64,000 nt of DNA from Candidatus Saccharimonadota bacterium (GCA_036826375.1 DAISWL010000002.1:37157-101156); one strand, 5' to 3'. Shown: positions 9,439 through 31,593, counted from the first letter of the stretch. Numbers and translations are program-made. The notes: a model not told the origin generated them from the letters alone.

Positions 9439-10701
9439 TTAGGGCCCGGATACAATTACGGATCGTCCCGAGTAATCTACACGCTTACCTAGAAGATTCT
9501 GGCGGAAACGACCCTGCTTGCCCTTTAAACTATCACTCAATGATTTAAGTTTACGTCTACCACCGGTTGAAGTTACTGGGCGACCATTTCTAGCTGCAGA
9601 ATTATCAATCAAAGCATCTACTGCCTCTTGGAGCATTCTGCGCTCATTCCTTTGGATTACCTCTGGAGCATTCAGATTAATAAGCTTCTTCAAACGGTTA
9701 TTGCGATTAATGACTCTCCTGTAGAGATCGTTAATATCACTAGTGGCGAACCTGCCGCCAGTTAGTTGAACCATTGGCCTTAGATCGGGAGGAATTACGG
9801 GTAGAGCTGTTGTACACATTGAAGATGGTTCTATCCCTGCCTGATACATACCTTCTAGTACCTTCAAACGCTTCATTATTTTTTTACGCCTTGCACCTTT
9901 GGCATCTTCAACTTCTTTATTTAGCTCAGCTGTAATATCCCTTAAATCGGTTTGGTCTAGTATAGTTTTCAAAGCCTCGCCGCCCATGCCAACGGTAATA
10001 ATATCAGCATAAGCATCAGTTAGATCACGATAGTCGGTCTCAGAGATCAAAGCGTACTTATTTAGGGATTCTAGCTTAGCCTTATTCATTAAGTAATCTT
10101 CCGTGAGCCCGTCTAACTCTTTACTACGCTCAGAAGCAAGCGCCTTAACGTCTACACCCTCTTCAGCCATTAGCTCTTCATACTTGTGATTAAGTTTAGC
10201 TTTATCCGCCTCAATAGTATTTTCTAATTCATCTAGCAAACTCTGCTTAGCCTCCTCGTCTACGTTCAATATTACATAGGAAGCAAAGTAAACAATTTTT
10301 TCTAGAGATTTTACAGTCATACCGGTAATCAAGCTTATGGCGCTAGGAAGCCCCTTTAAAAACCATATATGCGCAACTGGGGCCGCTAATAGAATATGAC
10401 CCATTCTTTCACGTCTAACTATAGAGCGAGTTACGAGTTCTCCGTTCTTATCTACTGCCATTTCTCTAGAGCGTATGCCCTTGAATTTAGCATCATTAGG
10501 ATTTATGTCTTTGACTGGTCCGAAGATTCTTTCACAAAATAGGCCGTCTTTCTCTGGTTTTTGCGTTCTATAGTTGATCGTCTCTGCTTTGGTGACTTCG
10601 CCGTGAGACCAGTTAAGTACATCCTCCATGGATGCTACCAAAAGCCTAATAGCTTCAAAATCTAAGTTTTTTTCATGGGCATTTCTAATATTAAAACTCA
10701 T
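9439..10701 (-). CDS. rpoC: DNA-directed RNA polymerase beta-prime subunit, N-terminal segment (ends ...GRSVIVSGP then TAA)
   Basis: 420 aa; ends [20 protein letters not shown], matching E. coli ...[14 protein letters not shown](Y). Same reading frame as the downstream segment, separated only by TAA-CTA-AGT before ATG. Confidence 0.9.
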
Positions 10702-10703
10702 AA

Positions 10704-13700
10704 TTATACCTCCTCTCCTTCGTTGCTCAAGCTTAAATCATCAGAACCTTGTTCGCTCTCTTCGTAAGATAATGGCTCTTCATCGTCAACATCATCACTG
10801 GATACAGTAGCTCCAGATAGCTGAGCGTTATCGCTAGGAACAGCTACCAGCATTTCTTCGGGCATATGCTCTGCTTCATCCTCTATATTATCCTCTAAGG
10901 ATCCCTCTGCGTCGGCTTCGCCACCACTACTGATTAAGTCTACCCTCAATCCTAAACCTTGCAATTCTTTTACTAGTACGTTGAAAGATTCTGGCACTTT
11001 GGGGCCTACTATCTTCTCACCTTTAATTATAGATTCGTAGGCCTTACTTCTACCGTAAACATCATCAGATTTAATGGTTAGCATTTCTTGTAGAGTGCTC
11101 GCGGCGCCATATGCCTCAAGAGCCCACACTTCCATTTCTCCAAACCTCTGCCCTCCATTTTGAGCCTTACCGCCAAGAGGCTGCTGAGTTACCATTGCAT
11201 ATGGACCTATTGAACGAGAATGGATTTTATCGTTAACCATATGATGAAGCTTCATCATATGCATAACACCCACTGCTATACGCTCTTTAAACTTGTCCCC
11301 GGTGCGACCATCATATAATTCGGCCTTCCCATCCCTATCAAAACCGGCTTTTTCCAATTCATCTTTAACGGATTCTATCGATACCCCATCGAAAGCGGGA
11401 GTAGCCACTTTATATCCCAATGCTCTAGCAGCCATACCTAAATGAAGCTCAAATAGCTGACCAATATTCATACGGCTAGGGACTCCAAGTGGGTTCAAAA
11501 CCATATCAACAGGAGTACCATCCTCCATGAAGGGCATATCCTCTTCTGGTAATATTTTGGCTACCACGCCTTTATTACCATAACGACCAGCCATTTTGTC
11601 ACCAGGCTGAATCTTACGCATCTGAGCAACAAAAACCTGAACCTGCATCAGTACTCCAGATTTAAGATCGGCCCCATTCTCACGTGTGAATACTTTTACT
11701 CCAACTACTTTGCCGCGCTTACCGTTGGGCATTCTTTCGCTGGTATCTCTAACATCTTTCGCCTTTTCACCGAATATAGCCCTCAGTAACTTCTCTTCAG
11801 AACTAAGTTCTTGTTCACCCTTGGGGGTAATTTTACCGACTAGGATATCTCCAGGCTCAACTTCGGCGCCGACTCTAACTATGCCACTTTCATCTAGGTT
11901 GGCCAGAACTTCTTCGCTAACATTTGGGATATCCCTAGTTACAACCTCGGGGCCCAATTTAGTTTCACGTATTTCAGTAATAAAGTCTGATATATAAACT
12001 GAGGTTAATTCGTCGTCTTTCACTAAACGTTGGGATATGATGATTGAATCTTCAAAATTATACCCGCCCCAAGGCATGAAGGCCACCAGCATATCTTTTC
12101 CTAAAGCTAACTCGCCATCCTTGATACTCATGCCTTCTGCCAAAATATCGCCTTTTTTGACCTTATCGCCTGATTTAACTACTACTTTTTGGTTGATAGA
12201 ACTGTTCGAGTTGGTTCTCACAAAATGCTCTAAAATATATATCTTAGTACCATCTTTATACTTAACATGAACCTCGTTAGCGTCGGCCTTCTTAATTTCA
12301 CCATCGGCATCCGCCGTGATAACTTGGCCCGTGTTATTAGCTATAAGCTCTTCCATGCCGGTGCCAATTATGGCCGGTTCAGGCTTAATTAAAGGAACAG
12401 CTTGCTTCTGCATGTTTGCGCCCATTAAACAGCGGTTGACTAGGTTCTTCTCTATGAAAGGGATTAGGGCTGCAGTAGATCCTACGATCTGTGATTGAGC
12501 GGCATCCATATAGTCAATTTCGTCAGCGTCTACTTCTGCCGGATGAGCAAACTTTCTAGCAGTCACTCTCTCACCGGTGAATGCGCCACTATCGTTAAGT
12601 TTATTACCAGCGCTGGCGATAATAAACTCTTTTTCTTGATCCGCATTAAGATAAACTACTTCATCGGTAACTTTACCTTTTTTGACTTTAAAATAAGGGG
12701 TTTCAATAAAGCCGTATTCATTAATCTTGGCATACGTTGCTAAGTTTAATACTAAACCAATATTCGGACCTTCTGGAGTTTCTGTCATACATATTCTACC
12801 GTAGTGAGTAGGATGCACATCGCGAACCTCGAAGCCGGCTCTTTCGCGAGTTAGGCCTCCTGGTCCCATAGAGTTCAAACGACGCTTATGGGCAAGCTCA
12901 CTCAAAGGGTTAGTCTGCTCCATAAACTGAGAAAGCTGAGATGTAGTAAAGAATTCACGCACACTAGCCACTATTGGCCTAGCGTTAACTAGTTGAGCGG
13001 CTGTTACGGTTTGGATGTCCGAAAGGCTCATTCTATCTTTGATATTTCGCTCAATTCTAAGCATACCGATTCTGAACTGACGCTGAACCAACTCTCCAAC
13101 TAATTTAACCCTTCTTGATGAGAGTGAATCTATGTCGTCACCGGGTTCCTGCGTATTATTAAGTCTAATTACTTCCTTGATAATTTCAACGAGATCTTCA
13201 ACTTTTAAGATTCTGTTTTCAACTGTATTAGTAATATCTAAGTTTAAGCGGCTGTTGATCTTATATCTACCAACACGAGAGAGATCGAACCTTTTAAAAT
13301 TAAAGAAGGTAGATTCTATTAAGCTTCTAGCATTATCGACTGTTGCCAAATCGCCAGGTCTTAATTTTCTATAAACTTCTATTAAAGCCTCACTAACCCC
13401 TCCGGCTGGGTCTTTTTCAAGTGTTGTATCTATGAATTTTATGCCTCCGTCGTCAATTTCTTTAAAAGCTTTTTTAATATCGCTTTTATTCATGCCGAAT
13501 GATTGCAAAAGAGTTGTTACTGGCAGTTTACGACGTCTATCTATCTTAACACTTAAAACCCCGTTCTCTGCAGTTTCTATTTCTATCCAAGCACCTCTGG
13601 CTGGTGCTAGTTTAGCGGAATAAACGAACTTAGATCCAGCAAGTTCACGACCAAAAGTTACGCCAGGGCTCCTAATCAATTGACTAACCACTACTCGCTC

Positions 13701-21705: not shown

Positions 21706-23748
21706 ATGTTAAGTCTAGGTTCCGATATTACCGAAGTAAGTGGCGTTGGAGCGGGCATCCAGCTTAAGCTTAATCGTTTAGGCATATTTAAAGTTAGGGA
21801 TCTAATCAACCATTTGCCTTTTCGTTTTGAAGATTACAGTAAGCTAACAAAAATCGGGGAGCTGGGATCTGGCCAACAAACTATAAAAGCGAAAATTAAA
21901 ACTGTTTCTGCTCGTCGTGCTAAAACTAGAGGTACCCACATCACAGAAGTTGTTGTTGAAGATGCCACCGGATCGGTTAAAATAGTTTGGTTCAACCAGC
22001 CTTGGCGCGTAAAAAGTTTAAAATCTGGGCCAGAATATTTTTTTAGTGGTGATTTCGGGTTCCACTACAGTTATCCATCGATGATGAATCCTAGCGTTGA
22101 GTTGGTCAGTGATTTCAATACTAATACTGCTAGAATCTTACCGATATACCGACAAACCAAGGGTTTAAATTCAAAAATGATCAGAAAATTTCATGGCGAG
22201 ATTAAGCATCTTTATGCTGAAATTGAAGACGATTTGCCCCTAGAAGTGATTAAGCTTAATAACTTATTAAACTTAAGCCAAGCTATTGAAAAATTGCACT
22301 GGCCACAAAGTTCTGAAGATATTAAAATCGCCGAGCTAAGATTCAGTTTTGAAGAGTTGTTCGAGTTGATGATGGCATCTTATTTAAATAAACAAGAAAA
22401 TTTGAAGCTAAAAGCGCCTAAACTTAAGTTTGATTTAGAGCTCACTAAAAAGATGCTCGCCGAGCTACCTTTTGAATTAACAGATGATCAGAAAAAAGCT
22501 AGTTGGGCGGTGATGCAAAATCAGCAACAAACTGAACCGATGAACCGCCTAGTTCAAGGTGATGTAGGTAGCGGTAAAACTATCGTGGCGCTACTTTCCG
22601 CACTACAATGTTTGAATAGTGGCTATCAGTGCGCGGTGATTGCCCCAACCGAAATTTTAGCATCTCAGCATTTTAAGTTTTTTGAATCGGAGCTAGAAAA
22701 ATTTAAATTTAAAGCCTTAAGCTTAACATCTTCAACCCAAAAAGCTGAGCGTGAACAAATATCTAAAATTATTGAATCAGACCAGCCGGTTTGTATAGTG
22801 GGAACTCATGCTCTGATCCAGAAAAATGTTAAGTTTAGCAAATTAGGTTTAATTGTTATTGATGAGCAACATCGATTTGGAGTTCGCCAACGTCAAGCTA
22901 TGCAAAAAAATCATCAAGCGGATTTCTCCCCGCACGTACTAAGCTTAAGTGCTACACCGATTCCGAGAAGTATGATGTTAACCGTTTACGGGGAACTAGA
23001 TGTTTCTATAATCGAACAAATGCCACTAGGGCGAAAACCAGTTAAAACCGAGATTTTACCATCTAGTGGCAGAATTGAACTTTATAAAAAATTGGAGCCT
23101 GAAATCAAAGCTGGCAATCAAATGTTTGTTATTTGCCCTAGAATTGAAGCGGATGATGAAGCCGACGATGAACCGAGGAGCGTTGAAACGCAGATGGAAA
23201 ATCTACAGAAGAGTAGTTTAGCTAAATTCAGAATTGAAGCCGTTCACGGTAAAATGAAACCGGCAGAAAAAGAGGAAATCATCCTTAAGTTTAGTCGCGG
23301 AGAAATAGACATTCTAGTAGCCACTACGGTGGTTGAAGTTGGAGTCGACATCTCAAATGCAAACTTGATGATTATTGAATCTGCTGAAAATTTTGGGTTA
23401 GCTCAGCTACATCAACTAAGAGGTCGCATTGGGCGAAATCAAGATCAAGCCTACTGCTACGGTATATCCTCCACCGATGGCGCAATGCCAACTCGACTCC
23501 GCTATTTCGCTAGAGAAAACAGTGGATTCAAACTTGCAGAATACGATCTTAAACTTAGAGGCCCGGGCAGGATGTTCAGCGAAATGCAAAGTGGCAATTT
23601 CAGCTTTAAGTTTACTGACCCATCTGATTTGAAAACTATCAATAAGGTCAGAGATTCTATCAAACTAATAGAATCTGAAAAAATTAAACTTAATCAAAAA
23701 CTGCTGGCTAAGATTAATGATTTACGTCGAGTGAGCATCTTGAATTAA
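21706..23748 (+). CDS. recG: ATP-dependent DNA helicase RecG
   Basis: 680 aa; wedge/OB N-terminus, helicase motifs GDVGSGKT and DEQHRFGV, and a TRG-like region. Confidence 0.9.
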   Translation: MLSLGSDITEVSGVGAGIQLKLNRLGIFKVRDLINHLPFRFEDYSKLTKIGELGSGQQTIKAKIKTVSARRAKTRGTHITEVVVEDATGSVKIVWFNQPWRVKSLKSGPEYFFSGDFGFHYSYPSMMNPSVELVSDFNTNTARILPIYRQTKGLNSKMIRKFHGEIKHLYAEIEDDLPLEVIKLNNLLNLSQAIEKLHWPQSSEDIKIAELRFSFEELFELMMASYLNKQENLKLKAPKLKFDLELTKKMLAELPFELTDDQKKASWAVMQNQQQTEPMNRLVQGDVGSGKTIVALLSALQCLNSGYQCAVIAPTEILASQHFKFFESELEKFKFKALSLTSSTQKAEREQISKIIESDQPVCIVGTHALIQKNVKFSKLGLIVIDEQHRFGVRQRQAMQKNHQADFSPHVLSLSATPIPRSMMLTVYGELDVSIIEQMPLGRKPVKTEILPSSGRIELYKKLEPEIKAGNQMFVICPRIEADDEADDEPRSVETQMENLQKSSLAKFRIEAVHGKMKPAEKEEIILKFSRGEIDILVATTVVEVGVDISNANLMIIESAENFGLAQLHQLRGRIGRNQDQAYCYGISSTDGAMPTRLRYFARENSGFKLAEYDLKLRGPGRMFSEMQSGNFSFKFTDPSDLKTINKVRDSIKLIESEKIKLNQKLLAKINDLRRVSILN

Positions 23749-23774
23749 AATATTGTATAATGATTAACAGGTGT

Positions 23775-23864
23775 GCGGTGGTGGCGGAATTGGTAGACGC
23801 GCTAGCTTGAGGGGCTAGTGTCCGATTTTAGGACGTGGAGGTTCAAGTCCTCTTCACCGCACCA
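23775..23864 (+). tRNA. tRNA-Leu (anticodon GAG), class II with long variable arm, CCA encoded
   Basis: Near-identical architecture to E. coli tRNA-Leu. 7-bp acceptor GCGGTGG/TCACCGC, anticodon arm CTAGC-TTGAGGG-GCTAG, T-arm GGAGGTTCAAGTCCTCT. Confidence 0.9.
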
Positions 23865-23877
23865 AAAGAACTTAGAT

Positions 23878-24396
23878 ATGTTTACGATGATAACTAAGCA
23901 CCATAATTACGACACTGGCTATATTAGCCTTGTGAATTTAGAGTTGGGGGATCTCCCAAAGACAATTAAGTTTAAAGGTAATAATTTGTTATTAAAGAAT
24001 GAGTTTCATATTTCGATAATGGCTATAAAAAATCTAGCTCCAATGCTAAATTCTAATAACTTAGAGCTTGCTAGCGAACAACTCAAACAAGATTTTATTA
24101 ACTTTGCAGCATCTCATGATTTAATAAACTTCAGACCTACTGGTCATTTTAGAATCGTAACCCGTGATGACCGAATCTCAATTATCGCTATGGTGCAATT
24201 ACGAAATATTGATAAGTTATACAGCTATCTAAGAGCAAAATACGATGTAGATTTTCCTACCCAGCCTACCCACATAACTATGTATACTCTTCAGCCTGAA
24301 GCTGGAATAGGGATTTTATCTGAGGAAGAGCTTGAAAGAGACAGTATCAATGCGGATATACCGGAACTTAATGGGCTAAGGATTGTGAGTAGTTAA
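23878..24396 (+). CDS. 2H phosphoesterase superfamily protein (LigT/ThpR-like 2',3'-cyclic phosphodiesterase)
   Basis: Track ORF trimmed because its start lies inside the tRNA. 172 aa from ATG 23878; two H-x-S/T-x motifs in hydrophobic context (FHISIM at His44, THITMY at His132), spaced ~88 aa as in LigT. Confidence 0.5.
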   Translation: MFTMITKHHNYDTGYISLVNLELGDLPKTIKFKGNNLLLKNEFHISIMAIKNLAPMLNSNNLELASEQLKQDFINFAASHDLINFRPTGHFRIVTRDDRISIIAMVQLRNIDKLYSYLRAKYDVDFPTQPTHITMYTLQPEAGIGILSEEELERDSINADIPELNGLRIVSS

Positions 24397-24397
24397 T

Positions 24398-25015
24398 ATG
24401 GCTAAAGAAATTGAAGTAAAATTTTTAAATATTGATCACGAAGAGATGCGTGCTAAGCTTAAGGCACTGGGCGCTAAGCTTAAATCTCCAAAAACACTTT
24501 ATAAAAGAATTAATCTAGATTTTAAAGATAATTCACTCCATAAACTGGGTAGCTGGGTTAGGTTGAGAGATGAGGGAGATAAAATCACCCTTACACATAA
24601 AATTCACAGTAAAGATCAAAAAGATCAATTAAAAATTGAAGAATTTGAAATCACCGTTAATAGCTTCGATCATGCAGTTAGTTTTTTGGAATCTATCAAT
24701 ATGAAAGTTAAAACCTACCAAGAAAATTACAGAGAAAACTGGAGCCTAAAAACCCAATCTGGTTTGGTAGAAGTGGCGCTAGATCAATGGCCTCACGTTA
24801 GGCCTCATATTGAAATAGAGTTGGAATCTGGGGATGAAAAATCTCTGGAAGAAGCCTGCCAAATGTTAAACTTAAATTTCACTCAAGCCATTAATGATGA
24901 CATCTGCCCGGTATACATGGCTGAGTATGACATATCTGAAAGATCTCAACTGTACGATTTAGAAGGTGGCTTCAGGTTCAATTCGCCGATTAAGCTTAAC
25001 AGGAAATTAACCTAA
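24398..25015 (+). CDS. CYTH-domain protein (triphosphate tunnel metalloenzyme; CyaB/ThTPase-like)
   Basis: 205 aa; N-terminal EIEVKF (ExExK) and C-terminal HIEIELESGDE (ExExE) signature motifs. Starts 2 nt after the upstream gene. Confidence 0.65.
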   Translation: MAKEIEVKFLNIDHEEMRAKLKALGAKLKSPKTLYKRINLDFKDNSLHKLGSWVRLRDEGDKITLTHKIHSKDQKDQLKIEEFEITVNSFDHAVSFLESINMKVKTYQENYRENWSLKTQSGLVEVALDQWPHVRPHIEIELESGDEKSLEEACQMLNLNFTQAINDDICPVYMAEYDISERSQLYDLEGGFRFNSPIKLNRKLT

Positions 25016-25165
25016 ATGACGACAAAAGCTCAAAATATTTATCGCTCAGATGATACAATTCATAATTATCGAAGTTACTACAAAAAGGCTAAGCCATCTG
25101 AAAATTACGGGAAACAGCTTCTCTTATGATTTTTGGGATATGAAAAAAGTTCAAAAGCATTTGGT
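25016..25165 (+). pseudogene. 5' remnant of a second copy of the HIT-family gene found intact at 29391-29822 (internal ~70-nt deletion, premature stop)
   Basis: Direct sequence comparison. 25016-25060 and 25128-25164 are near-identical to 29391-29435 and 29572-29607. Translation MTTKAQNIYRSDDTIHNYRSYYKKAKPSENYGKQLLL* versus MITKAQNIYRSDDNISNYQNYRKKVKPSEN... Confidence 0.55.
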
Positions 25166-25217
25166 ATTGGAAGTTAGAAATTGCTTATAGTTCTCTTAAT
25201 AATGCTATAATCAAAAA

Positions 25218-25308
25218 GTCTAAACAAGCAGCTAAAACTAGCATAAAGAGCCCTTTTAGGGCACTCACTAAGGTTTTAGTTCTTTAACTAGGGCTGTTTG
25301 TTTAGACG
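25218..25308. repeat. nested inverted-repeat element (outer 15-bp arms GTCTAAACAAGCAGC / GCTGTTTGTTTAGAC; inner CTAAAAC...GTTTTAG and GCCC-TTTTA-GGGC hairpins)
   Basis: Seen directly. Sits between the HIT-gene remnant and the first cargo gene of the insertion. Confidence 0.4.
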
Positions 25309-25384
25309 CAAATAAGTGGGTGTCCTTTTTAGTTACAGATACCTACTAAACACTAAACAATTAAACAAATGGAGGTATCTATTT

Positions 25385-26080
25385 ATGGATGCAAACTCAA
25401 ATAAAGCCCCTCAGCAAGGCAATAACACATTAGCAATACTATCTTTAGTATTTAGCTTTCTATTTGCCCCAATGGGCTTAATTTTAGGAATTATTGCCCT
25501 AGCAAAGAAACAAAGTAAAGGCTTGGCAATATCAGGTATAGTAATATCATCACTGGGCTTACTATTCTTCATATCAATTATAGGCGCTGGATCCAAGGCA
25601 GTTAACGACGTTAGCAAGGAGATTAATGATGGCGCTAGTAGTTCTTCTTCAAAGTCATCAAGTAAAAACCAAGCCCCTGCTGGTAAGGTTGGTGAACCGG
25701 TTAGGGACGGTAAGTTCGAGTTTACAGTTTTATCCCAAGAATGTGGCATAACCAAAGTAGGTAATGAATACCTTAACAAAACAGCCCAGGGTCAATACTG
25801 TAAAGTTAATATCAAAGTTAAGAACATAGGGGACAAACCTCAATCCTTATTTTCAAGCAGCCAAAAGCTATTTAGCTCAGACAACAAAGAATTCTCAACC
25901 GACGATTCAGCTATGATTTACGATAGCTCAAACAGCCAGAGTGTTTGGCTAAATGAAATTAATCCAGGTAATGAAGTTACGGGAAACCTAATATTCGATA
26001 TACCAAATGGAGTAACTCCTTCTTCAGTAAAACTTTTTGACTCTGCATTTAGCGGAGGCGTGAGTGTTGGGTTGAACTAG
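25385..26080 (+). CDS. membrane-anchored DUF4190/DUF4352-like protein
   Basis: Start moved to ATG 25385 (GGAGG 10 nt upstream). Hydrophobic DUF4190-like N-terminus (LAILSLVFSFLFAPMGLILGIIALAKK), Ser-rich linker, then a DUF4352-like beta domain (GKFEFTV...YCKVNIKVKNIG...FDIPNGV). Confidence 0.55.
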   Translation: MDANSNKAPQQGNNTLAILSLVFSFLFAPMGLILGIIALAKKQSKGLAISGIVISSLGLLFFISIIGAGSKAVNDVSKEINDGASSSSSKSSSKNQAPAGKVGEPVRDGKFEFTVLSQECGITKVGNEYLNKTAQGQYCKVNIKVKNIGDKPQSLFSSSQKLFSSDNKEFSTDDSAMIYDSSNSQSVWLNEINPGNEVTGNLIFDIPNGVTPSSVKLFDSAFSGGVSVGLN

Positions 26081-26215
26081 GAAAATATATTTTCAGATTT
26101 GCCCTTATAAACACTGGGGGGTTAATGTGCCTCGACTTATAATATAGACGGCTTAGTATTGAGTTCAAGTTGAATAGCTATCTGATAATAAATGTTGTAA
26201 AAAGTAATATTAATG

Positions 26216-26248
26216 TTGACTTTTTATATTTTTAAGTTATGATAATAT
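26216..26248 (+). promoter_or_regulatory. candidate sigma70-type promoter (TTGACT, ~17-19 bp spacer, TGATAATAT)
   Basis: Seen directly, upstream of the high-GC ORF and the methyltransferase gene. The exact -10 placement is ambiguous. Confidence 0.3.
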
Positions 26249-26291
26249 AAGTACACCTCACTTCAGGGGTGTCGTACCGAAAGGAACAGAA

Positions 26292-26507
26292 ATGAGAGTT
26301 GAATCAGACGGAAGCGTGACACTCTGCCATGTCGACCAGAACTGCTGCTGGACGTTGGGCTACAAAGACGGCGTCGTCAGGGTTTCCGACGAACACGGGA
26401 ACACCATCCTGGGGACCCCAGCTGAGTTCGGCTCCTTCCTCGCGGAAGCGGCAGGGGCAGCCAACCATCTCGGGATCCCCGAGATGGCAACTGCCGCCTC
26501 CTCCTGA
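26292..26507 (+). CDS. small high-GC ORF, DUF397-like (actinobacterial-type)
   Basis: 71 aa. Residues ~30-65 (VVRVSDEHGNTILGTPAEFGSFLAEAAGA) resemble the DUF397 core (V.VRDSK.P.GP.L.FT..EW.AFLAG) recalled from Streptomyces proteins. Codons are GC3-rich, unlike all neighbours. Confidence 0.35.
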   Translation: MRVESDGSVTLCHVDQNCCWTLGYKDGVVRVSDEHGNTILGTPAEFGSFLAEAAGAANHLGIPEMATAASS

Positions 26508-26679
26508 GTCGGCGCGGGTTCGTTGGGGGTGGTGTAGCTAGTCTGCACCGCCCCTAACGGCGAATTTTATACTTTCTGTACTGAGAGAAATGAGTTGTAG
26601 CTTGATAGGCTCCTTATTTCTCTCAATCGTTTTGAATTTATTAAATCTTATTAATTAAAGAGATGAGATCTATCGGATT

Positions 26680-27282
26680 ATGCATTTGCATGAAGTAGCC
26701 AGGGCAAGCGATGCTGTAGAGCTAAATACAGCTTTGGCCACCCCAGATACAGATTCTGACTTAGGGCTATACCTCAGACTATTAGGTGTAGATGCTGGTG
26801 AATTAGGGAGCCCAATACTAGATTTAGGCTCAAGTAAAACCCTTACATTTGCTACTGAAATGGCTAAATTGGGTAAGAGGGTTATATCACTAAGCCCAAA
26901 ATATATAATAGATAGTGAAAGACCCAGATTACCCCTAACACACAAGGGATTAACTGAACCTCTCGGGTTCTGCTTAGCGGCCTTGGCTCAAGAGTTACCG
27001 TTCAGGGATGGCTGTTTTGAAACAGTTGTGGCTGTGGGCTCTATACCTATGTACCTGCCCCGCAAAGCATATAAGGGCACACTAGAAGAAGTTATTAGAG
27101 TCACAAAACCACGAGGCAGCGCTTTCATTGGACCTATTTATGAGTTCTCGGAATCTAACTTTTCAGAAAGACTGTTTTTTGAAGCAATTAAAGGCGTTAA
27201 AGGCGCTGATATATCAATAGTAGATATGAAATCTCAAGGAGGAACTTCCTACAAGATCTTGAGGGTGAATAAATTCCAATAA
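26680..27282 (+). CDS. class I SAM-dependent methyltransferase
   Basis: 200 aa; motif I ILDLGSS, motif II-like KRVISLSP, post-I acidic loop, RVTKPRGSAFIG resembling the RVLKPGG block of Methyltransf_11/25-type enzymes. Confidence 0.6.
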   Translation: MHLHEVARASDAVELNTALATPDTDSDLGLYLRLLGVDAGELGSPILDLGSSKTLTFATEMAKLGKRVISLSPKYIIDSERPRLPLTHKGLTEPLGFCLAALAQELPFRDGCFETVVAVGSIPMYLPRKAYKGTLEEVIRVTKPRGSAFIGPIYEFSESNFSERLFFEAIKGVKGADISIVDMKSQGGTSYKILRVNKFQ

Positions 27283-27318
27283 TCAGCAGAAGATTAAACT
27301 CTTGCTACACTAAGAACT

Positions 27319-28983
27319 CTAGAGTTGGATAGTTTTGTTGGCGCCAAAAGCTTCTACAAAATCTCTATCGTGACTAATTAGTATAACAGCTCCTTTATAT
27401 CCTTTTAGAGCTTCTTGTAGGCCATCTATAGCCTGTATATCTAAATTATTAGTAGGTTCATCTAAGACTAGCAAATTAGCCTTATTAGCAACGGCCGCTG
27501 CTAATAAAATTCTCATTCTCTCGCCGCCACTAAGTGAACTAACTGGCTGACCCTTGATCTCATTAGGACTTAGCCCGAATCTAGCCATTAAACTATTAGC
27601 CTCTTGGGTGTCTACATCTGGAGCAATATTAATCAGGTTACGCATAGCGTCTTCAGACGGACTAGGCAATGATTGCTGCTGATCTATATAAACAACTCTC
27701 GCACTAGCAGATAGTCTTACATCACCAGACACGGCCAAGCCTTCAGGAATAGTTGTAAGGGGTAGCATTCCTTTTAGTAAGCTGGTTTTGCCAGAGCCGT
27801 TGGAGCCAGCTATTAACATTCTATCGCCTGGAGCTAGGTGAAAACCAAATGGTCCTATATCTAGACTGCTTTCCATTGTGGACGCAGCAGCTCTTCTGAC
27901 CTTAAGCTCGTTAGCTTCTAAAATGCTAGTTCCTAATTCTGCGCTGGGAATATCGAAGTCTAGCTTGGGCAGCTCCGCCAATGTCAGTCTTGGTTTGCGC
28001 GCTCTCATCTGTTCCAATCTGGAATCTAGAGCCCTTATCTTGGCTGATGAGCTGGTACCTGCTCTCTCTGCTTTAAAGTTGTGAGCAGATTTGTCGTTAT
28101 CACGTGGGCCTCTCCTCGATCTAGCTGCCGAACTAGATTGACGACTTCTCAACTGTCTGGTAGATTTCTCTAGCCTAGAGATTTTCCTTTCATGTTCCAC
28201 CAATTCATCTTCCTCCAATCTTAAATCTCTATCCCTTAAACTCAGGTATTCTTCATAGCTAGTATTGTAGTGCCTAATACCTCCTGAGTTAGCAGATACC
28301 TCCAGAATACTGGTTGCTACATTTCTCAGAAATCTTCTATCATGGGTAGCGACCAAGAAAGCCTTACTACCACTGGATGCAGCAGACCTAACATAATCCT
28401 CTAGAAGTTCAGCTCCTACTGAATCTAAATTATTTGTAGGCTCATCCAACAATACAATGTCGTATACATTTGCAAATATTGTAGATAGTACGATTCTCGA
28501 TACCTGCCCCCCAGATAGTCGTCTCATTGGCCTATCGATAGTTATATCAGACATGCCCATATCAGATAAAAACCTTAAAACATTTGCCTGCATGACTGCG
28601 GAATCGAACCTAGCTAACCTTTCTGCCGTGTCACATAGTGCTTGAAGATTCTCAGCAGTTTGAAATCTGGTATATGCATCACTGGCTCTATCGTATTCTA
28701 ATTCAGCCAGTTCAACTCCACTGACCCTATTGATATATTCCCCCACGGTAAGGGTGGTACTGACGTTCTGAGGGACGTTACCAATATCAACATGCCCTGT
28801 AGTAGATACTCTACCTGATGAGGGCTCCAGCGAACCTCCTATTAAATTAAGCAAAGTCGTCTTACCTGAGCCGTTTGGGCCTACAAGCCCCGCAACATCA
28901 CCTCTGTTTATGGAAAAACTAACGTCTTCAAGGACGAGTCGACCACGGTCAGTTTCATAACTTATATCATCAACTTTCAACAT
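27319..28983 (-). CDS. ABC-F family ATPase with two ABC domains, no TMD and a long Arg/Lys-rich inter-domain linker (ARE-type/ribosome-associated)
   Basis: 554 aa; Walker A GPNGSGKTT and GSNGSGKTS, signatures LSGGQVSR and LSGGERMR, and a ~100-aa linker rich in R/K/S. Confidence 0.85.
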   Translation of the reverse strand: MLKVDDISYETDRGRLVLEDVSFSINRGDVAGLVGPNGSGKTTLLNLIGGSLEPSSGRVSTTGHVDIGNVPQNVSTTLTVGEYINRVSGVELAELEYDRASDAYTRFQTAENLQALCDTAERLARFDSAVMQANVLRFLSDMGMSDITIDRPMRRLSGGQVSRIVLSTIFANVYDIVLLDEPTNNLDSVGAELLEDYVRSAASSGSKAFLVATHDRRFLRNVATSILEVSANSGGIRHYNTSYEEYLSLRDRDLRLEEDELVEHERKISRLEKSTRQLRSRQSSSAARSRRGPRDNDKSAHNFKAERAGTSSSAKIRALDSRLEQMRARKPRLTLAELPKLDFDIPSAELGTSILEANELKVRRAAASTMESSLDIGPFGFHLAPGDRMLIAGSNGSGKTSLLKGMLPLTTIPEGLAVSGDVRLSASARVVYIDQQQSLPSPSEDAMRNLINIAPDVDTQEANSLMARFGLSPNEIKGQPVSSLSGGERMRILLAAAVANKANLLVLDEPTNNLDIQAIDGLQEALKGYKGAVILISHDRDFVEAFGANKTIQL

Positions 28984-29110
28984 ACTTTATAATAATAGTA
29001 ACATATTCTCCGATTTGTTCAAGTCGAACGTATTAACTCGCAACCTTTGCATCATAAATCTTAGTTTAGAATCTTAATTTCTAGAGAACACCTCGTCTTA
29101 GACAAAACCG

Positions 29111-29230
29111 CTAGGTTCTAAGGCTAGCGGTGTAAGCCGCTGGACTCATACGTAATGCATTGTGAATACGCTGGTTGCAGTAGTAATAAATATCCTTAGC
29201 AATTGTTTCGTGGGTTAGCTCGCTGCTGTG
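29111..29230 (-). pseudogene. C-terminal remnant (~40 aa) of a DDE transposase (rve integrase-type, IS3-family-like tail)
   Basis: Minus-strand translation ...ETIAKDIYYYCNQRIHNALRMSPAAYTASLRT* matches the conserved IS3/rve C-terminal pattern Y.FYN..R.HS.LGY.SP..Y recalled from memory. No upstream catalytic part is present. Confidence 0.45.
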
Positions 29231-29376
29231 GCGCAGCCCGAAATCTACAATTAAAAGCATCGAGCATCTTCATTTTCACTTGATAAAAACCGAGGATGCT
29301 AAACTTAATATTCTGGTAGAATATTCAGATTAGAACCAACCTCTGGCCTCTAACCTGCTATAATTAAGCTTAATAG
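29229..29376 (+). pseudogene. 3' remnant of the HIT-family gene plus ~45 nt of its downstream region, duplicated immediately upstream of the intact copy
   Basis: ~93% identical to 29719-29866, including ...IEHLHFHLIKTEDAKLNILVEYSD and the downstream TATAAT-containing spacer. It abuts the transposase remnant. Confidence 0.55.
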
Positions 29377-29390
29377 GAGGCCAACTTAGA

Positions 29391-29822
29391 ATGATAACAA
29401 AAGCTCAAAATATTTATCGCTCAGATGATAACATTAGTAATTATCAGAATTATCGTAAAAAAGTTAAGCCATCTGAAAATTGTGTTTTTTGTTCTGATGA
29501 AAAGCCGAGTTTTAATCCTCGAAGCTTAAACTTAAGGCATCTTAGAATTATAGAAAATAGCTTTCCGTACGATTTTTGGGATATGAAAAAAGTTCAAAAG
29601 CATTTGATGATCATCCCACTCAACCACATAGATTGCGTATCCAAACTTAATTCTAACGAGCAAAAAGAGCTAAACTTAGTTATGGCCCATTTTTCTGATG
29701 CTGGCTATGATATTTTTGTTCGCAGCCCGCAATCTACAATTAAAAGTATCGAGCATCTTCATTTTCACTTGATAAAAACCGAGGATGCTAAACTTAATAT
29801 TCTGGTAGAATATTCAGATTAA
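29391..29822 (+). CDS. HIT (histidine triad) family hydrolase
   Basis: 143 aa; C-terminal HLHFHLI matches the H-phi-H-phi-H-phi-phi triad; N-terminal CVFC; AGGAGG 7 nt upstream of the ATG. Confidence 0.6.
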   Translation: MITKAQNIYRSDDNISNYQNYRKKVKPSENCVFCSDEKPSFNPRSLNLRHLRIIENSFPYDFWDMKKVQKHLMIIPLNHIDCVSKLNSNEQKELNLVMAHFSDAGYDIFVRSPQSTIKSIEHLHFHLIKTEDAKLNILVEYSD

Positions 29823-29855
29823 AACCAATCTCCAACCTGGTATAATTAAGTTTAG

Positions 29856-30467
29856 ATGAAGATTGATTTCAAAAAACAGTTAACTTGCTATAAGGCTTCC
29901 CGAAAACTAGAGATCATCGAGGTGCCAAAATTACAATATTTAATGATAGATGGGTTTGGTGATCCTAACGCATCTAAAATGTATCAAGATGCACTCCATA
30001 CTCTGTACCCGGTTGCTTATAAACTTAAGTTTATTTCAAAAAATTTAAATAAAGATTTTGTAGTGATGCCGCTGGAAGGTCTGTGGTGGGCGGATCAGAT
30101 GGATAGTTTTACATCGGCCAGAGATAAAAGCCAGTGGCACTGGACGATGATGATTATGCAACCGAGCCATATAACTCCGGAAATGTTAAAAGATGCTAAG
30201 CTTAAGTTGGCTCAGCAAAAAGATGCTCCGCCGCTACTGGATGATATAAGGCTTGAATATCTGAATGAAGCTACGTCGGTTCAAGTTTTGCACGTTGGTT
30301 CTTATGATGATGAAGCAGATATTTTAGCCAAGATGCATCATGAATTTATCCCAGAAAATAAGCTTAAGATGGTTGGTAAACATCACGAAATCTATTTGAG
30401 CGATCCCAGAAAAATCAGCCCCGAAAAATTAAAAACAATTTTGCGCCAGCCGGTAGAGAATCTATAA
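29856..30467 (+). CDS. GyrI-like small-molecule-binding domain protein
   Basis: 203 aa; the C-terminal HHEIYLSDPRKISPEKLKTILRQP block resembles the GyrI-like/effector-binding domain family, from memory. Confidence 0.4.
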   Translation: MKIDFKKQLTCYKASRKLEIIEVPKLQYLMIDGFGDPNASKMYQDALHTLYPVAYKLKFISKNLNKDFVVMPLEGLWWADQMDSFTSARDKSQWHWTMMIMQPSHITPEMLKDAKLKLAQQKDAPPLLDDIRLEYLNEATSVQVLHVGSYDDEADILAKMHHEFIPENKLKMVGKHHEIYLSDPRKISPEKLKTILRQPVENL

Positions 30468-30527
30468 AGTTCTAGACATCTTCACTAAATTTAATTTATT
30501 TGCTACAATTAAGTTTAGTGGTTTAAT

Positions 30528-30604
30528 GGGTGGCTAGCTCAGTTGGCTAGAGCATCTCGTTTACACCGAGAGGGTCGGGGGTTCGAGTCCCTCGCCACCC
30601 ACCA
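30528..30604 (+). tRNA. tRNA-Val (anticodon TAC), CCA encoded
   Basis: Cloverleaf: acceptor GGGTGGC/GCCACCC, D-arm TAGCTCAGTTGGCTAGAGC, anticodon loop TTTACAC, T-arm GGGGGTTCGAGTCCCTC. Confidence 0.9.
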
Positions 30605-30636
30605 TTAACACTTATATTTTTTAAAAAATCATGAGC

Positions 30637-30712
30637 GGCTCTTTAGCTCAGTTGGTAGAGCAGAGGCCTGAAGAGCCTTGTGTCCCCAGTTCGAGTCTGG
30701 GAGGAGCCACCA
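30637..30712 (+). tRNA. tRNA-Phe (anticodon GAA), CCA encoded
   Basis: Acceptor GGCTCTT/AGGAGCC (one G-U pair), D-arm TAGCTCAGTTGGTAGAGC, anticodon loop CTGAAGA, T-arm CCCAGTTCGAGTCTGGG. Confidence 0.9.
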
Positions 30713-31013
30713 CAAAACGTTATTTTATACTTAAGCTTAGTGAATATCCGCTAAGCTTTTTTGTTTATAAAAGATTTCCCATTGGCGAGAACTGGATTAG
30801 CGAGCCGATAGAGCGAGCGCAGTCGGCGGAATGAATAAGCGCGCAGCAACCGGAACGAAGTGAAGATTGCGAGCACTTATGGATGGAGGAGGCGAAGCCG
30901 ATGTCTGGGAGGAGCCACCACGAAACGTTATTTTATACTTAAGCTTAGTGAATATCCGCTAAGCTTTTTTGTTTATAAAAGATTTTCCATTGGCGAGAAC
31001 TGGATTAGCGAGC
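30695..31013 (+). repeat. tandem direct duplication (~111-nt unit, ~98% identical, period 208 nt) of the tRNA-Phe 3' end (19 nt) plus the downstream terminator region, with a 97-nt GC-richer unique spacer
   Basis: Copy 1 at 30695-30805 and copy 2 at 30903-31013 differ at 2 positions. Spacer 30806-30902 is ~55% GC. Track ORFs 30631-30834 and 30860-31132 are artefacts of this repeat. Confidence 0.7.
30733..30764 (+). terminator. rho-independent terminator after tRNA-Phe (stem AAGCTTAG/CTAAGCTT, 10-nt loop, TTTTTT)
   Basis: Seen directly. The stem is built from the iterated AAGCTT palindrome. A second copy lies at ~30941-30972 inside the duplicated unit. Confidence 0.6.
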
Positions 31014-31059
31014 GAGTGCTTTTTACAAAGCTCAAGGTAGTATCTACTAGAATTAATAC

Positions 31060-31593
31060 TCAGGCTACTATTATATTACCTGCAGCCAGGCGAGGTCCTC
31101 CACTATGGCCTTTTTCCTCGCTCGGGGTATAAGGATCTTCTTTTAAATGGACCATTATTGAAGTGCCCTCTGGTGAATTTAACAATGATGCCGGACCTGG
31201 GCTAAGACTAAATCTATTGGTAATTGCTTCCATCTGACCATTTCCTTCTTCATCTACAATAATATTAGGCAAATCCCCAGCGTGATAACTATGATTAACA
31301 TCTGGGTTAGTGTTACCATTTGGGCCGGGATCAAAGTGCCCACCAGTACACATAAAGGTATCGGAGGCTTCATCTTCACATGTCATTGCTTTTTCATGGA
31401 TGTGACATGCATGCTTTCCCGGGGCTAGCACAGATGTATCGCCGCTAAGCTTAACACTAACTTTAACGTATTTGTAGCCTTCAATATCGTATTCTATGAA
31501 TTCTGCTCGGCCAGATATCCCCCTTCCTGATATCTCAGCTGCAGCTTGAGCTGTAACTTTACTTTGGTTGGATATTAAATCTACTTGTGCCAT
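31060..31593 (-). CDS. sodC: Cu/Zn superoxide dismutase
   Basis: 177 aa; copper/zinc-ligand blocks HACHIHE, GGHFDP, HAGDLPN; N-terminal region compatible with secretion. Confidence 0.85.
   Translation of the reverse strand: MAQVDLISNQSKVTAQAAAEISGRGISGRAEFIEYDIEGYKYVKVSVKLSGDTSVLAPGKHACHIHEKAMTCEDEASDTFMCTGGHFDPGPNGNTNPDVNHSYHAGDLPNIIVDEEGNGQMEAITNRFSLSPGPASLLNSPEGTSIMVHLKEDPYTPSEEKGHSGGPRLAAGNIIVA

Follow-up and report, generated by a model that had tools for sequence, protein, structure and literature searches.

The window analysed here is a 64,000-nt stretch of DNA from a Candidatus Saccharimonadota bacterium (GCA_036826375.1 DAISWL010000002.1:37157-101156), a Saccharibacteria-like member of the Patescibacteria. 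Between tRNA-Leu(GAG) and a tRNA-Val/tRNA-Phe pair it carries a strain-variable segment that encodes a divergent 2H-superfamily phosphoesterase (ORF1), a CYTH triphosphate-tunnel enzyme, a HIT hydrolase and a GyrI-like protein, with an inserted island between the CYTH and HIT genes (Table 1; positions are counted from the first base of the window). An earlier reading of the same DNA, here called the original prediction, regarded these genes as a dedicated module for RNA-end healing or for the turnover of signalling nucleotides. Its four domain assignments (2H, CYTH, HIT and GyrI-like) are right, all elements lie where it had placed them, and the island is real and was rightly set aside. The 2H-CYTH pairing itself, however, is a recent local join and no conserved system, as the neighbourhoods of homologues and the comparison with near-identical relatives show below.

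Table 1. Features of the segment between tRNA-Leu and the tRNA-Val/tRNA-Phe pair.
Feature	Position	Strand	Basis	Remark
tRNA-Leu(GAG)	23775-23864	+	ARAGORN; Rfam, 50.2 bits	left border of the strain-variable segment
Leader remnant of the module	23865-23877	+	alignment	fused to the tRNA 3' end at the common CACCA
ORF1, divergent 2H-superfamily phosphoesterase (predicted)	23878-24396	+	HxS/HxT motifs, model, fold matches, family-wide Pfam	alternative start 23887 (MITKHH)
CYTH / triphosphate-tunnel metalloenzyme, hydrolase type (predicted)	24398-25015	+	Pfam CYTH, SaTTM profile match, signature residues	
5' piece of the disrupted HIT pseudogene	25016-25163	+	direct repeats D3/D4, tblastn	abuts the CYTH stop
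Foreign island, ~4.07 kb	25164-29231		composition, contents, absence in relatives	
DUF4352/DUF4190 membrane protein	25385-26080	+	phrog_806, 3e-29	
71-aa ORF	26292-26507			in high-G+C stretch
Terminator	26520-26560			18-pair stem
SAM methyltransferase	26680-27282	+		
ABC-F ATPase	27319-28983	-	NF000355, 341 bits	under the cut-off of 380
Transposase-like C-terminal remnant	29114-29231	-	motif reading by the authors; no Pfam support	38 residues
3' piece of the disrupted HIT copy	29232-29333	+	direct repeat D2, tblastn	
Duplicated junction: post-HIT spacer copy, then 28-nt CYTH 3'-end remnant	29344-29390	+	repeats D11, D19	
Intact Hint-type HIT hydrolase (predicted)	29391-29822	+	Pfam, invariant triad and CxxC, AF2/Foldseek	
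GyrI-like small-molecule-binding protein (predicted)	29856-30467	+	Pfam GyrI-like	same slot in L037
tRNA-Val(TAC) and tRNA-Phe(GAA)	30528-30712	+	ARAGORN, Rfam	right side of the variable segment

The genes are tightly packed. A single nucleotide (TAA T ATG) separates the ORF1 stop from the CYTH start, one fewer than the 2-nt spacing originally given, and the CYTH stop abuts the 5' piece of a disrupted HIT copy with a gap of 0 nt. Because of these gaps, and because no terminator-like site was found between 23865 and 25163, the genes are probably co-transcribed. A promoter-like site at 29819-29846 precedes the GyrI-like gene. Across 23000-31500, Rfam returns the three tRNAs and nothing else.

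Pfam recognises the CYTH, HIT and GyrI-like proteins directly, whereas ORF1 itself has no match and its place among the 2H enzymes comes from family-wide matches and folds. Searches of ORF1 against Pfam, NCBIfam and the PDB gave no sequence match, a profile of its family found none in the PDB either, and an hhalign comparison of the family with E. coli ThpR found nothing. The two HxS/T motifs on which the assignment was first based are present as H41-I-S43 and H129-I-T131, about 88 residues apart; H41, H129 and T131 are invariant and S43 nearly so in 33 homologues, and the former 3 residues are conserved to at least 90% across 130 family members. In the AlphaFold (AF2) model (pLDDT 94), both motifs sit on beta strands. 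Foldseek matches are not individually strong (best E 0.15 for the PDB and 0.007 for viral models, TM 0.3-0.4), but despite the weak scores the top ranks are nearly all 2H enzymes. They include rotavirus VP3, Acb1, poxvirus cGAMP phosphodiesterase, MHV ns2 and AKAP18, and further LigT, "2'-5' RNA ligase", "Swiss army knife 2H" and cyclic phosphodiesterases. When the 130 members were scanned singly with Pfam, the three families matched by most members were all 2H: 2H-SAK (10 members, best 3.9e-6), 2_5_RNA_ligase2 (10) and LigT_PEase (9). ORF1 thus resembles the 2H superfamily (LigT/ThpR; PF22547, PF13563, PF02834) in having two H-x-S/T motifs on beta strands and 2H fold matches, and differs from it in falling under every Pfam and NCBIfam threshold and in its low TM values. 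Judged by motifs, model, fold matches and family-wide Pfam matches, we accept ORF1 as a predicted 2H-superfamily member that lies outside every curated family. By analogy with that superfamily, its most likely reaction is the opening of 2',3'-cyclic phosphate or 2'-5' phosphodiester bonds via the two His-x-Ser/Thr motifs.

The ORF1 family is unannotated, separate and mostly patescibacterial. None of the 49 close homologues (163-175 residues) has a Pfam domain, an exhaustive profile search yields 692 representative clusters, and nearly all of the 28 family loci in a genome scan belong to Saccharibacteria or other Patescibacteria. Some family members are fused to NUDIX (twice, at either end), DHH, ASCH, a 6-phosphogluconolactonase-type domain or SnoaL (P0201, P0203, P0270 and P0264 for the NUDIX, DHH and ASCH fusions), and at two loci a canonical LigT-type 2H enzyme adjoins the ORF1 homologue. 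Large serine recombinases stand beside ORF1 homologues at L123:1-1545 (63% identity) and L003:1-1605 (59%), the latter with a tyrosine integrase nearby as well (10398-11318), which suggests that in some lineages mobile elements carry the ORF1 gene.

The second gene matches Pfam CYTH at 1.7e-13 (51.3 bits against a cut-off of 23.2). Residues E4xE6xK8, R55, R57 and E139xE141 are invariant in all 36 family members, so that of the two motifs originally reported, ExExK and the E139xE141 part of "ExExE", stand, and the third Glu of the latter is not conserved. Relatives of this protein are named "class IV adenylate cyclase" or "adenylate cyclase class 2" in several sources. True cyclases of this class are distinguished by an HF motif four residues before ExExK, by loss of the first Arg of xRxR, which is replaced by a small residue, and by a change of the second Glu of ExE to Ala (Vogt et al., PMC8233210). 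We considered class IV adenylate cyclase (CyaB) as an identity for the window protein and rejected it: ExExK follows after just 2-3 residues in all 36 members, which leaves no room for HF, and R55 and E141 are kept throughout. All three published discriminators fail, and the residues fit the triphosphohydrolase signature of the same paper; the window CYTH is therefore predicted to be a hydrolase and not a cyclase, contrary to the cyclase activity that had been entertained for it. Its closest solved relative by family profile is SaTTM (Saci_0718; PDB 7ns8, 9.8e-14), a triphosphatase that produces no cyclic nucleotide (PMC8233210). ExExK, RxR and ExE are kept in the window CYTH as in SaTTM and other single-domain CYTH triphosphatases, but where SaTTM has Ala before RxR, the window family has an aromatic residue in all 36 members (position 53; W in 29, F in 4, Y in 3). 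W/Y-x-R-x-R is a thiamine-triphosphatase signature (PMC8233210), and the aromatic residue may point to a substrate in which a ring system adjoins the triphosphate. By analogy, the enzyme would strip the terminal phosphate from a triphosphorylated substrate.

The intact HIT protein lies just above the Pfam threshold (24.2 bits against 21.5) and belongs to a narrow family, with only 10 homologues from a word-seeded search. Among these, C31xxC34, H71 and the triad H122xH124xH126 (reading HLHFHLI) are invariant. With an AF2 model of pLDDT 79, the 50 PDB matches listed by Foldseek are nearly all Hint or unnamed HIT-family hydrolases (E from 8e-5, probability 1.0). By sequence and model, the protein is classed as Hint-like: it shares the histidine triad, the upstream His and the N-terminal CxxC with the Hint branch (human HINT1, E. 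coli HinT), although it is merely 10-24% identical to those structures. By analogy, it would cleave NMP-X adducts or dinucleoside polyphosphates via a His-NMP intermediate. HIT homologues also occur in other settings. At L120:258-4815, a 41%-identical homologue overlaps a 275-aa ORF without known family and lies ahead of genes for dCTP deaminase and for a thymidylate kinase-ThyX fusion, a pyrimidine-nucleotide context unlike that of the window; the homologue in L121 adjoins a protein of the metallo-beta-lactamase fold. The last gene matches Pfam GyrI-like (PF06445) over residues 18-196 (6.1e-12, 46.5 bits against a cut-off of 26).

To see which of these associations recur, we compared the neighbourhoods of ORF1 and CYTH homologues, covering +-6-8 kb around each; many of the metagenome contigs are short. 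The original prediction expected the 2H-CYTH pair in other genomes. Within two genes on either side of ORF1, Pfam finds CYTH, HIT or GyrI at 0 of 29 distinct loci, tblastn of the window CYTH, HIT and GyrI proteins against 33 ORF1-homologue loci gives nothing, and ORF1 is near CYTH at 0 of 81 CYTH loci. The sole exception beyond the window is L124, a contig in which ORF1-CYTH is 100% identical. At the loci surveyed, the pair is otherwise adjacent nowhere, which is the outcome that the original prediction had named as its refutation. What does surround ORF1 at the 29 loci is HAD (5 loci), DUF218 (3), NUDIX (3), EamA (3) and LigT-type 2H (2), and its closest relatives (58-61% identity) have the order ORF1-HAD-(NUDIX)-DUF218. 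The closest CYTH relatives are arranged differently: CYTH-HIT-DUF218 in L034 (89%), HIT-CYTH-DUF218 in L035 (51%) and CYTH-HIT-DUF218-GyrI in L037 (48%). In the window, the segment is preceded by RecG and YajQ and followed by SodC and LepA. Synteny with L037 runs from YajQ/RecG via tRNA-Leu(GAG) to tRNA-Val, tRNA-Phe, SodC and LepA, the full order in L037 being RecG, tRNA-Leu(GAG), a 79-aa ORF, CYTH, HIT, DUF218, GyrI, tRNA-Val, tRNA-Phe, SodC and LepA; the tRNA-Val/tRNA-Phe pair also follows the cluster in L035 and L119. This synteny, together with the gene orders of the CYTH relatives, indicates that the inherited block is CYTH-HIT-DUF218-GyrI. Compared with that block, the window has lost DUF218 and has ORF1 in addition.

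Comparison with close relatives places the variation at gene borders. L119 and the window agree at 99.95% over 3867 nt, up to position 23867, 3 bases beyond tRNA-Leu, where identity collapses. Beyond tRNA-Leu, L119 has only a HIT gene (62% amino acid identity) before tRNA-Val and the first part of tRNA-Phe; ORF1, CYTH and GyrI are absent from the slot. The whole inter-tRNA segment is therefore accessory at the strain level. L122 lacks ORF1; its 98.4% match to the window starts one base ahead of the CYTH start codon, spans the broken HIT and reaches into the island. L034 (89%) has the same leader ahead of CYTH, again without ORF1. L124 has the full leader ahead of the ORF1-CYTH pair, with different surroundings upstream. 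As the leader is joined to CYTH with or without ORF1 in these relatives, the presence or absence of ORF1 maps precisely to the junction of leader and CYTH start codon. The window keeps the last ~20 nt of this leader, fused to the tRNA-Leu 3' end at CACCA, and the hairpin is gone.

In the relatives, the conserved unit upstream of the CYTH module (L122:120-250, L124:520-645, L034:60-133) consists of a GC-rich hairpin (CTGCGGAGCAGTTCGGCG...CCCGCCGAA), a TGcTAAAAT promoter-like element and a leader of ~45 nt. An integron attC-like site was considered for the L122/L124 hairpin and rejected, as the core sites misfit by eye; the unit resembles a terminator followed by a promoter.

The segment is reminiscent of tRNA-associated genomic islands in its tRNA flanks, in content that varies at 99.95% identity, in an insert of foreign composition and in a transposase-like remnant. 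It differs from them in that ORF calls and Pfam reveal no intact integrase or phage gene between the tRNAs, and a repeat search finds no direct repeat, att-type or other, bracketing the whole segment. The variation resembles gene-by-gene replacement in a syntenic slot and not the entry and exit of one element.

More distant relatives of the window CYTH (36-46% identity) show a different association. RNase Y, recognised by its RNase_Y_N, KH and HD domains, lies at most two genes upstream of CYTH at 22 of 81 loci, YmdB lies downstream at 22 of 81, and one or the other is present at 30 of 81 (for example L045:4430-7388 and L040:976-4527, among L040-L110). HAD (10 loci) or NUDIX (8 loci) is close by, at several loci between rny and CYTH, and the genes abut or overlap. 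The CYTH proteins in this context are 39-100% identical to each other (median 56%), and in a distance tree they fall outside the HIT/DUF218 clade of the window. In B. subtilis, rny and ymdB are neighbours with polar effects (PMC3542257), and YmdB is a phosphodiesterase (PMC6123443). In many patescibacterial contigs, relatives of the window CYTH lie between the two genes of this known pair, whereas the window has neither rny nor ymdB and a HIT-DUF218 context has replaced the older one in its CYTH clade. A literature search found no paper tying CYTH to RNase Y or YmdB. An ancestral tie of the CYTH family to RNA decay is supported by these gene orders.

The interpretation that we favour, at a probability of roughly 0.55, is that the window genes are co-transcribed yet separable clean-up enzymes for by-products of nucleotide and RNA decay, in a recombination-prone locus. 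The enzymes would act in parallel in clean-up or salvage instead of forming an ordered pathway, and the GyrI-like protein would be a ligand binder beside the three hydrolases. That small phosphohydrolases (2H, HAD, NUDIX, CYTH, HIT and YmdB) recur together in changing combinations is supported by the surveys, and here the original theme of grouped nucleotide- and RNA-phosphate hydrolases is borne out: it returns as ORF1-HAD-(NUDIX)-DUF218, as CYTH-HIT-DUF218-GyrI and as rny-(HAD/NUDIX)-CYTH-ymdB. Several points count against our interpretation. The chemistry of the enzymes is assigned purely by superfamily analogy; the window copy has lost the promoter-like element, so that it would have to be transcribed by read-through from the tRNA gene; and the clean-up theme is loose, as the ORF1 neighbourhoods are mixed and even the commonest neighbour, HAD, is found at just 5 of 29 loci. 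The conservation of CYTH-HIT could in part be plain synteny among related genomes, and the tRNA-Leu/ORF1 joint is present in the window only, with no second contig.

Unrelated genes might instead share a hypervariable slot by accident, with no functional theme at all. Recombination breakpoints that coincide with gene borders, gene content that differs between strains and the heterogeneous neighbourhoods of ORF1 are all what such an accident would leave behind. We nonetheless think it unlikely, since HAD, NUDIX, LigT-type 2H, YmdB and HIT recur around ORF1 and CYTH at many independent loci and ORF1 is fused to NUDIX and DHH; this recurrence is, in our judgement, probably above the expectation for unrelated genes.

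Spelled out as a pathway, the dedicated module of the original prediction would have 2H, CYTH and HIT catalyse successive steps of RNA-end healing or of the turnover of a single signalling nucleotide (2',3'-cNMP or Ap4A, for instance), which the GyrI-like protein would sense. It draws on the tight packing of the genes on one strand, on the adjacency of CYTH and HIT in three lineages and in both orders (L034, L035, L037), on the position of the wider CYTH family between RNase Y and YmdB, and on the fusions of ORF1 homologues to NUDIX, DHH and ASCH. The 2H-CYTH pair at its centre, however, is a recent join and dispensable on either side, which leaves a dedicated module unsupported: no second pair turned up at the loci surveyed apart from the identical L124, ORF1 comes and goes among near-identical relatives, L119 retains HIT alone, and HIT homologues sit in unrelated contexts (L120, L121). 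The ligase, kinase or cyclase partners of known systems are missing as well; Pfam and NCBIfam detect no RNA ligase, polynucleotide kinase or cyclase domain in any of the 8 ORFs between the tRNAs, unlike in known RNA-repair cassettes (RtcB/RtcA, Pnkp/Hen1, "Swiss army knife" proteins), where the phosphoesterase is accompanied by such a partner. We regard this pathway as improbable.

Just as improbable, in our estimation, is a stronger version of the RNase Y connection, in which CYTH is part of the RNase Y mRNA-decay machinery and the 2H-CYTH join of the window is a non-orthologous replacement within an undescribed RNA-turnover guild. Under this scenario, CYTH is a candidate RNA 5'-triphosphatase that readies transcripts for NUDIX and RNase Y, and YmdB would clear cyclic-phosphate products in most lineages, its place being taken here by the new 2H family.

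The segment could also be cargo of a mobile element for counter-defence, with ORF1 as an Acb1-like 2H enzyme that destroys cyclic-oligonucleotide immune signals and the other hydrolases as accessories. A locus that is strain-variable, tRNA-flanked and mosaic would suit such cargo, as would the recombinases beside ORF1 homologues (of the serine type in L123 and in L003, where a tyrosine integrase is near as well), the fold matches to Acb1 and poxvirus cGAMP phosphodiesterase, and a weak match of HIT to ThsC2 (E = 0.0015). The fold matches to LigT, cyclic phosphodiesterases and 2H-SAK are equally good, however, the segment has no intact integrase or phage gene, and the rny-ymdB setting of the CYTH family is chromosomal. 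ORF1 has no PHROG or PADLOC match and tblastn against 50,697 phage records was empty, so that we rejected an origin in phages or defence systems for it. This makes the counter-defence scenario quite improbable. Finally, a cAMP signalling pair, with CYTH as a class IV adenylate cyclase and ORF1 as the matching cyclic-nucleotide phosphodiesterase, has in its favour the names in the source records, a weak TIGR00318 match (24 bits against a cut-off of 58) and a Crp-type regulator two genes from the ORF1 homologue in L004 and L005, but receives next to no weight from us given that an HF motif is impossible, that both xRxR arginines and the second ExE Glu are kept in 36 of 36 members (discriminators of PMC8233210), and that SaTTM makes no cyclic nucleotide.

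The island splits a decayed HIT copy, whose two halves fix its edges. Its G+C content reaches 0.52, against about 0.35 in ORF1 and CYTH. The 5' HIT piece, which lacks 68 nt of internal sequence, matches the intact gene at 84-85% identity; the 3' piece is 96% identical to 29721-29832, and tblastn places it at HIT residues 111-143 (97%). The intact HIT gene is preceded by a copy of the post-HIT spacer and a 28-nt copy of the CYTH 3' end. These flanking copies define a tandem duplication unit of ~489 nt, comprising the CYTH tail, HIT and the spacer. The simplest history is a ~489-nt tandem duplication, followed by the insertion of 4.07 kb into the first HIT copy with the loss of 114 nt. The island is missing from L034, L037 and L119, its left junction is common to L122 (98.4%), and its DNA has no match among 72,556 plasmid records. 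A stretch of ~52% G+C (26250-26560) in a genome of ~36% G+C resembles DNA of a high-G+C donor. It includes the 71-aa ORF, which has no family match, in Pfam or otherwise, and which we take to be similar to actinobacterial DUF397. The methyltransferase gene is convergent with that of the ABC-F ATPase, which comes close to the NCBIfam model for "ribosomal protection-like ABC-F" but stays below its cut-off (341 against 380 bits); the two could be an antibiotic-tolerance pair in an episymbiont.

At the right side of the segment, a 111-nt direct repeat (30695-30805 and 30903-31013, 98% identical, 208 nt apart) is made up of the last 18 nt of tRNA-Phe and its terminator hairpin. L037 has a single copy. 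A local duplication or a past integration at tRNA-Phe may account for the repeat.

Taken as a whole, the case is unremarkable, although a few side observations are new. It is an example of how genes of related enzymes that look like a neat operon can have been patched together only recently, which is a caution for guilt-by-association annotation in the small, fast-evolving genomes of Patescibacteria. Three results can be reused elsewhere. The first is a sizeable unannotated family of 2H phosphoesterases with conserved catalytic motifs. The second is a widespread patescibacterial CYTH family that is misnamed adenylate cyclase and that, by its residues, is probably a hydrolase with a thiamine-triphosphatase-like aromatic signature. 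The third is the rny-CYTH-ymdB gene order, which is apparently undescribed and ties the CYTH family to RNA decay. Organisms of this kind depend on salvaged nucleotides, and clean-up enzymes such as those encoded here may matter to their physiology via nucleotide salvage.

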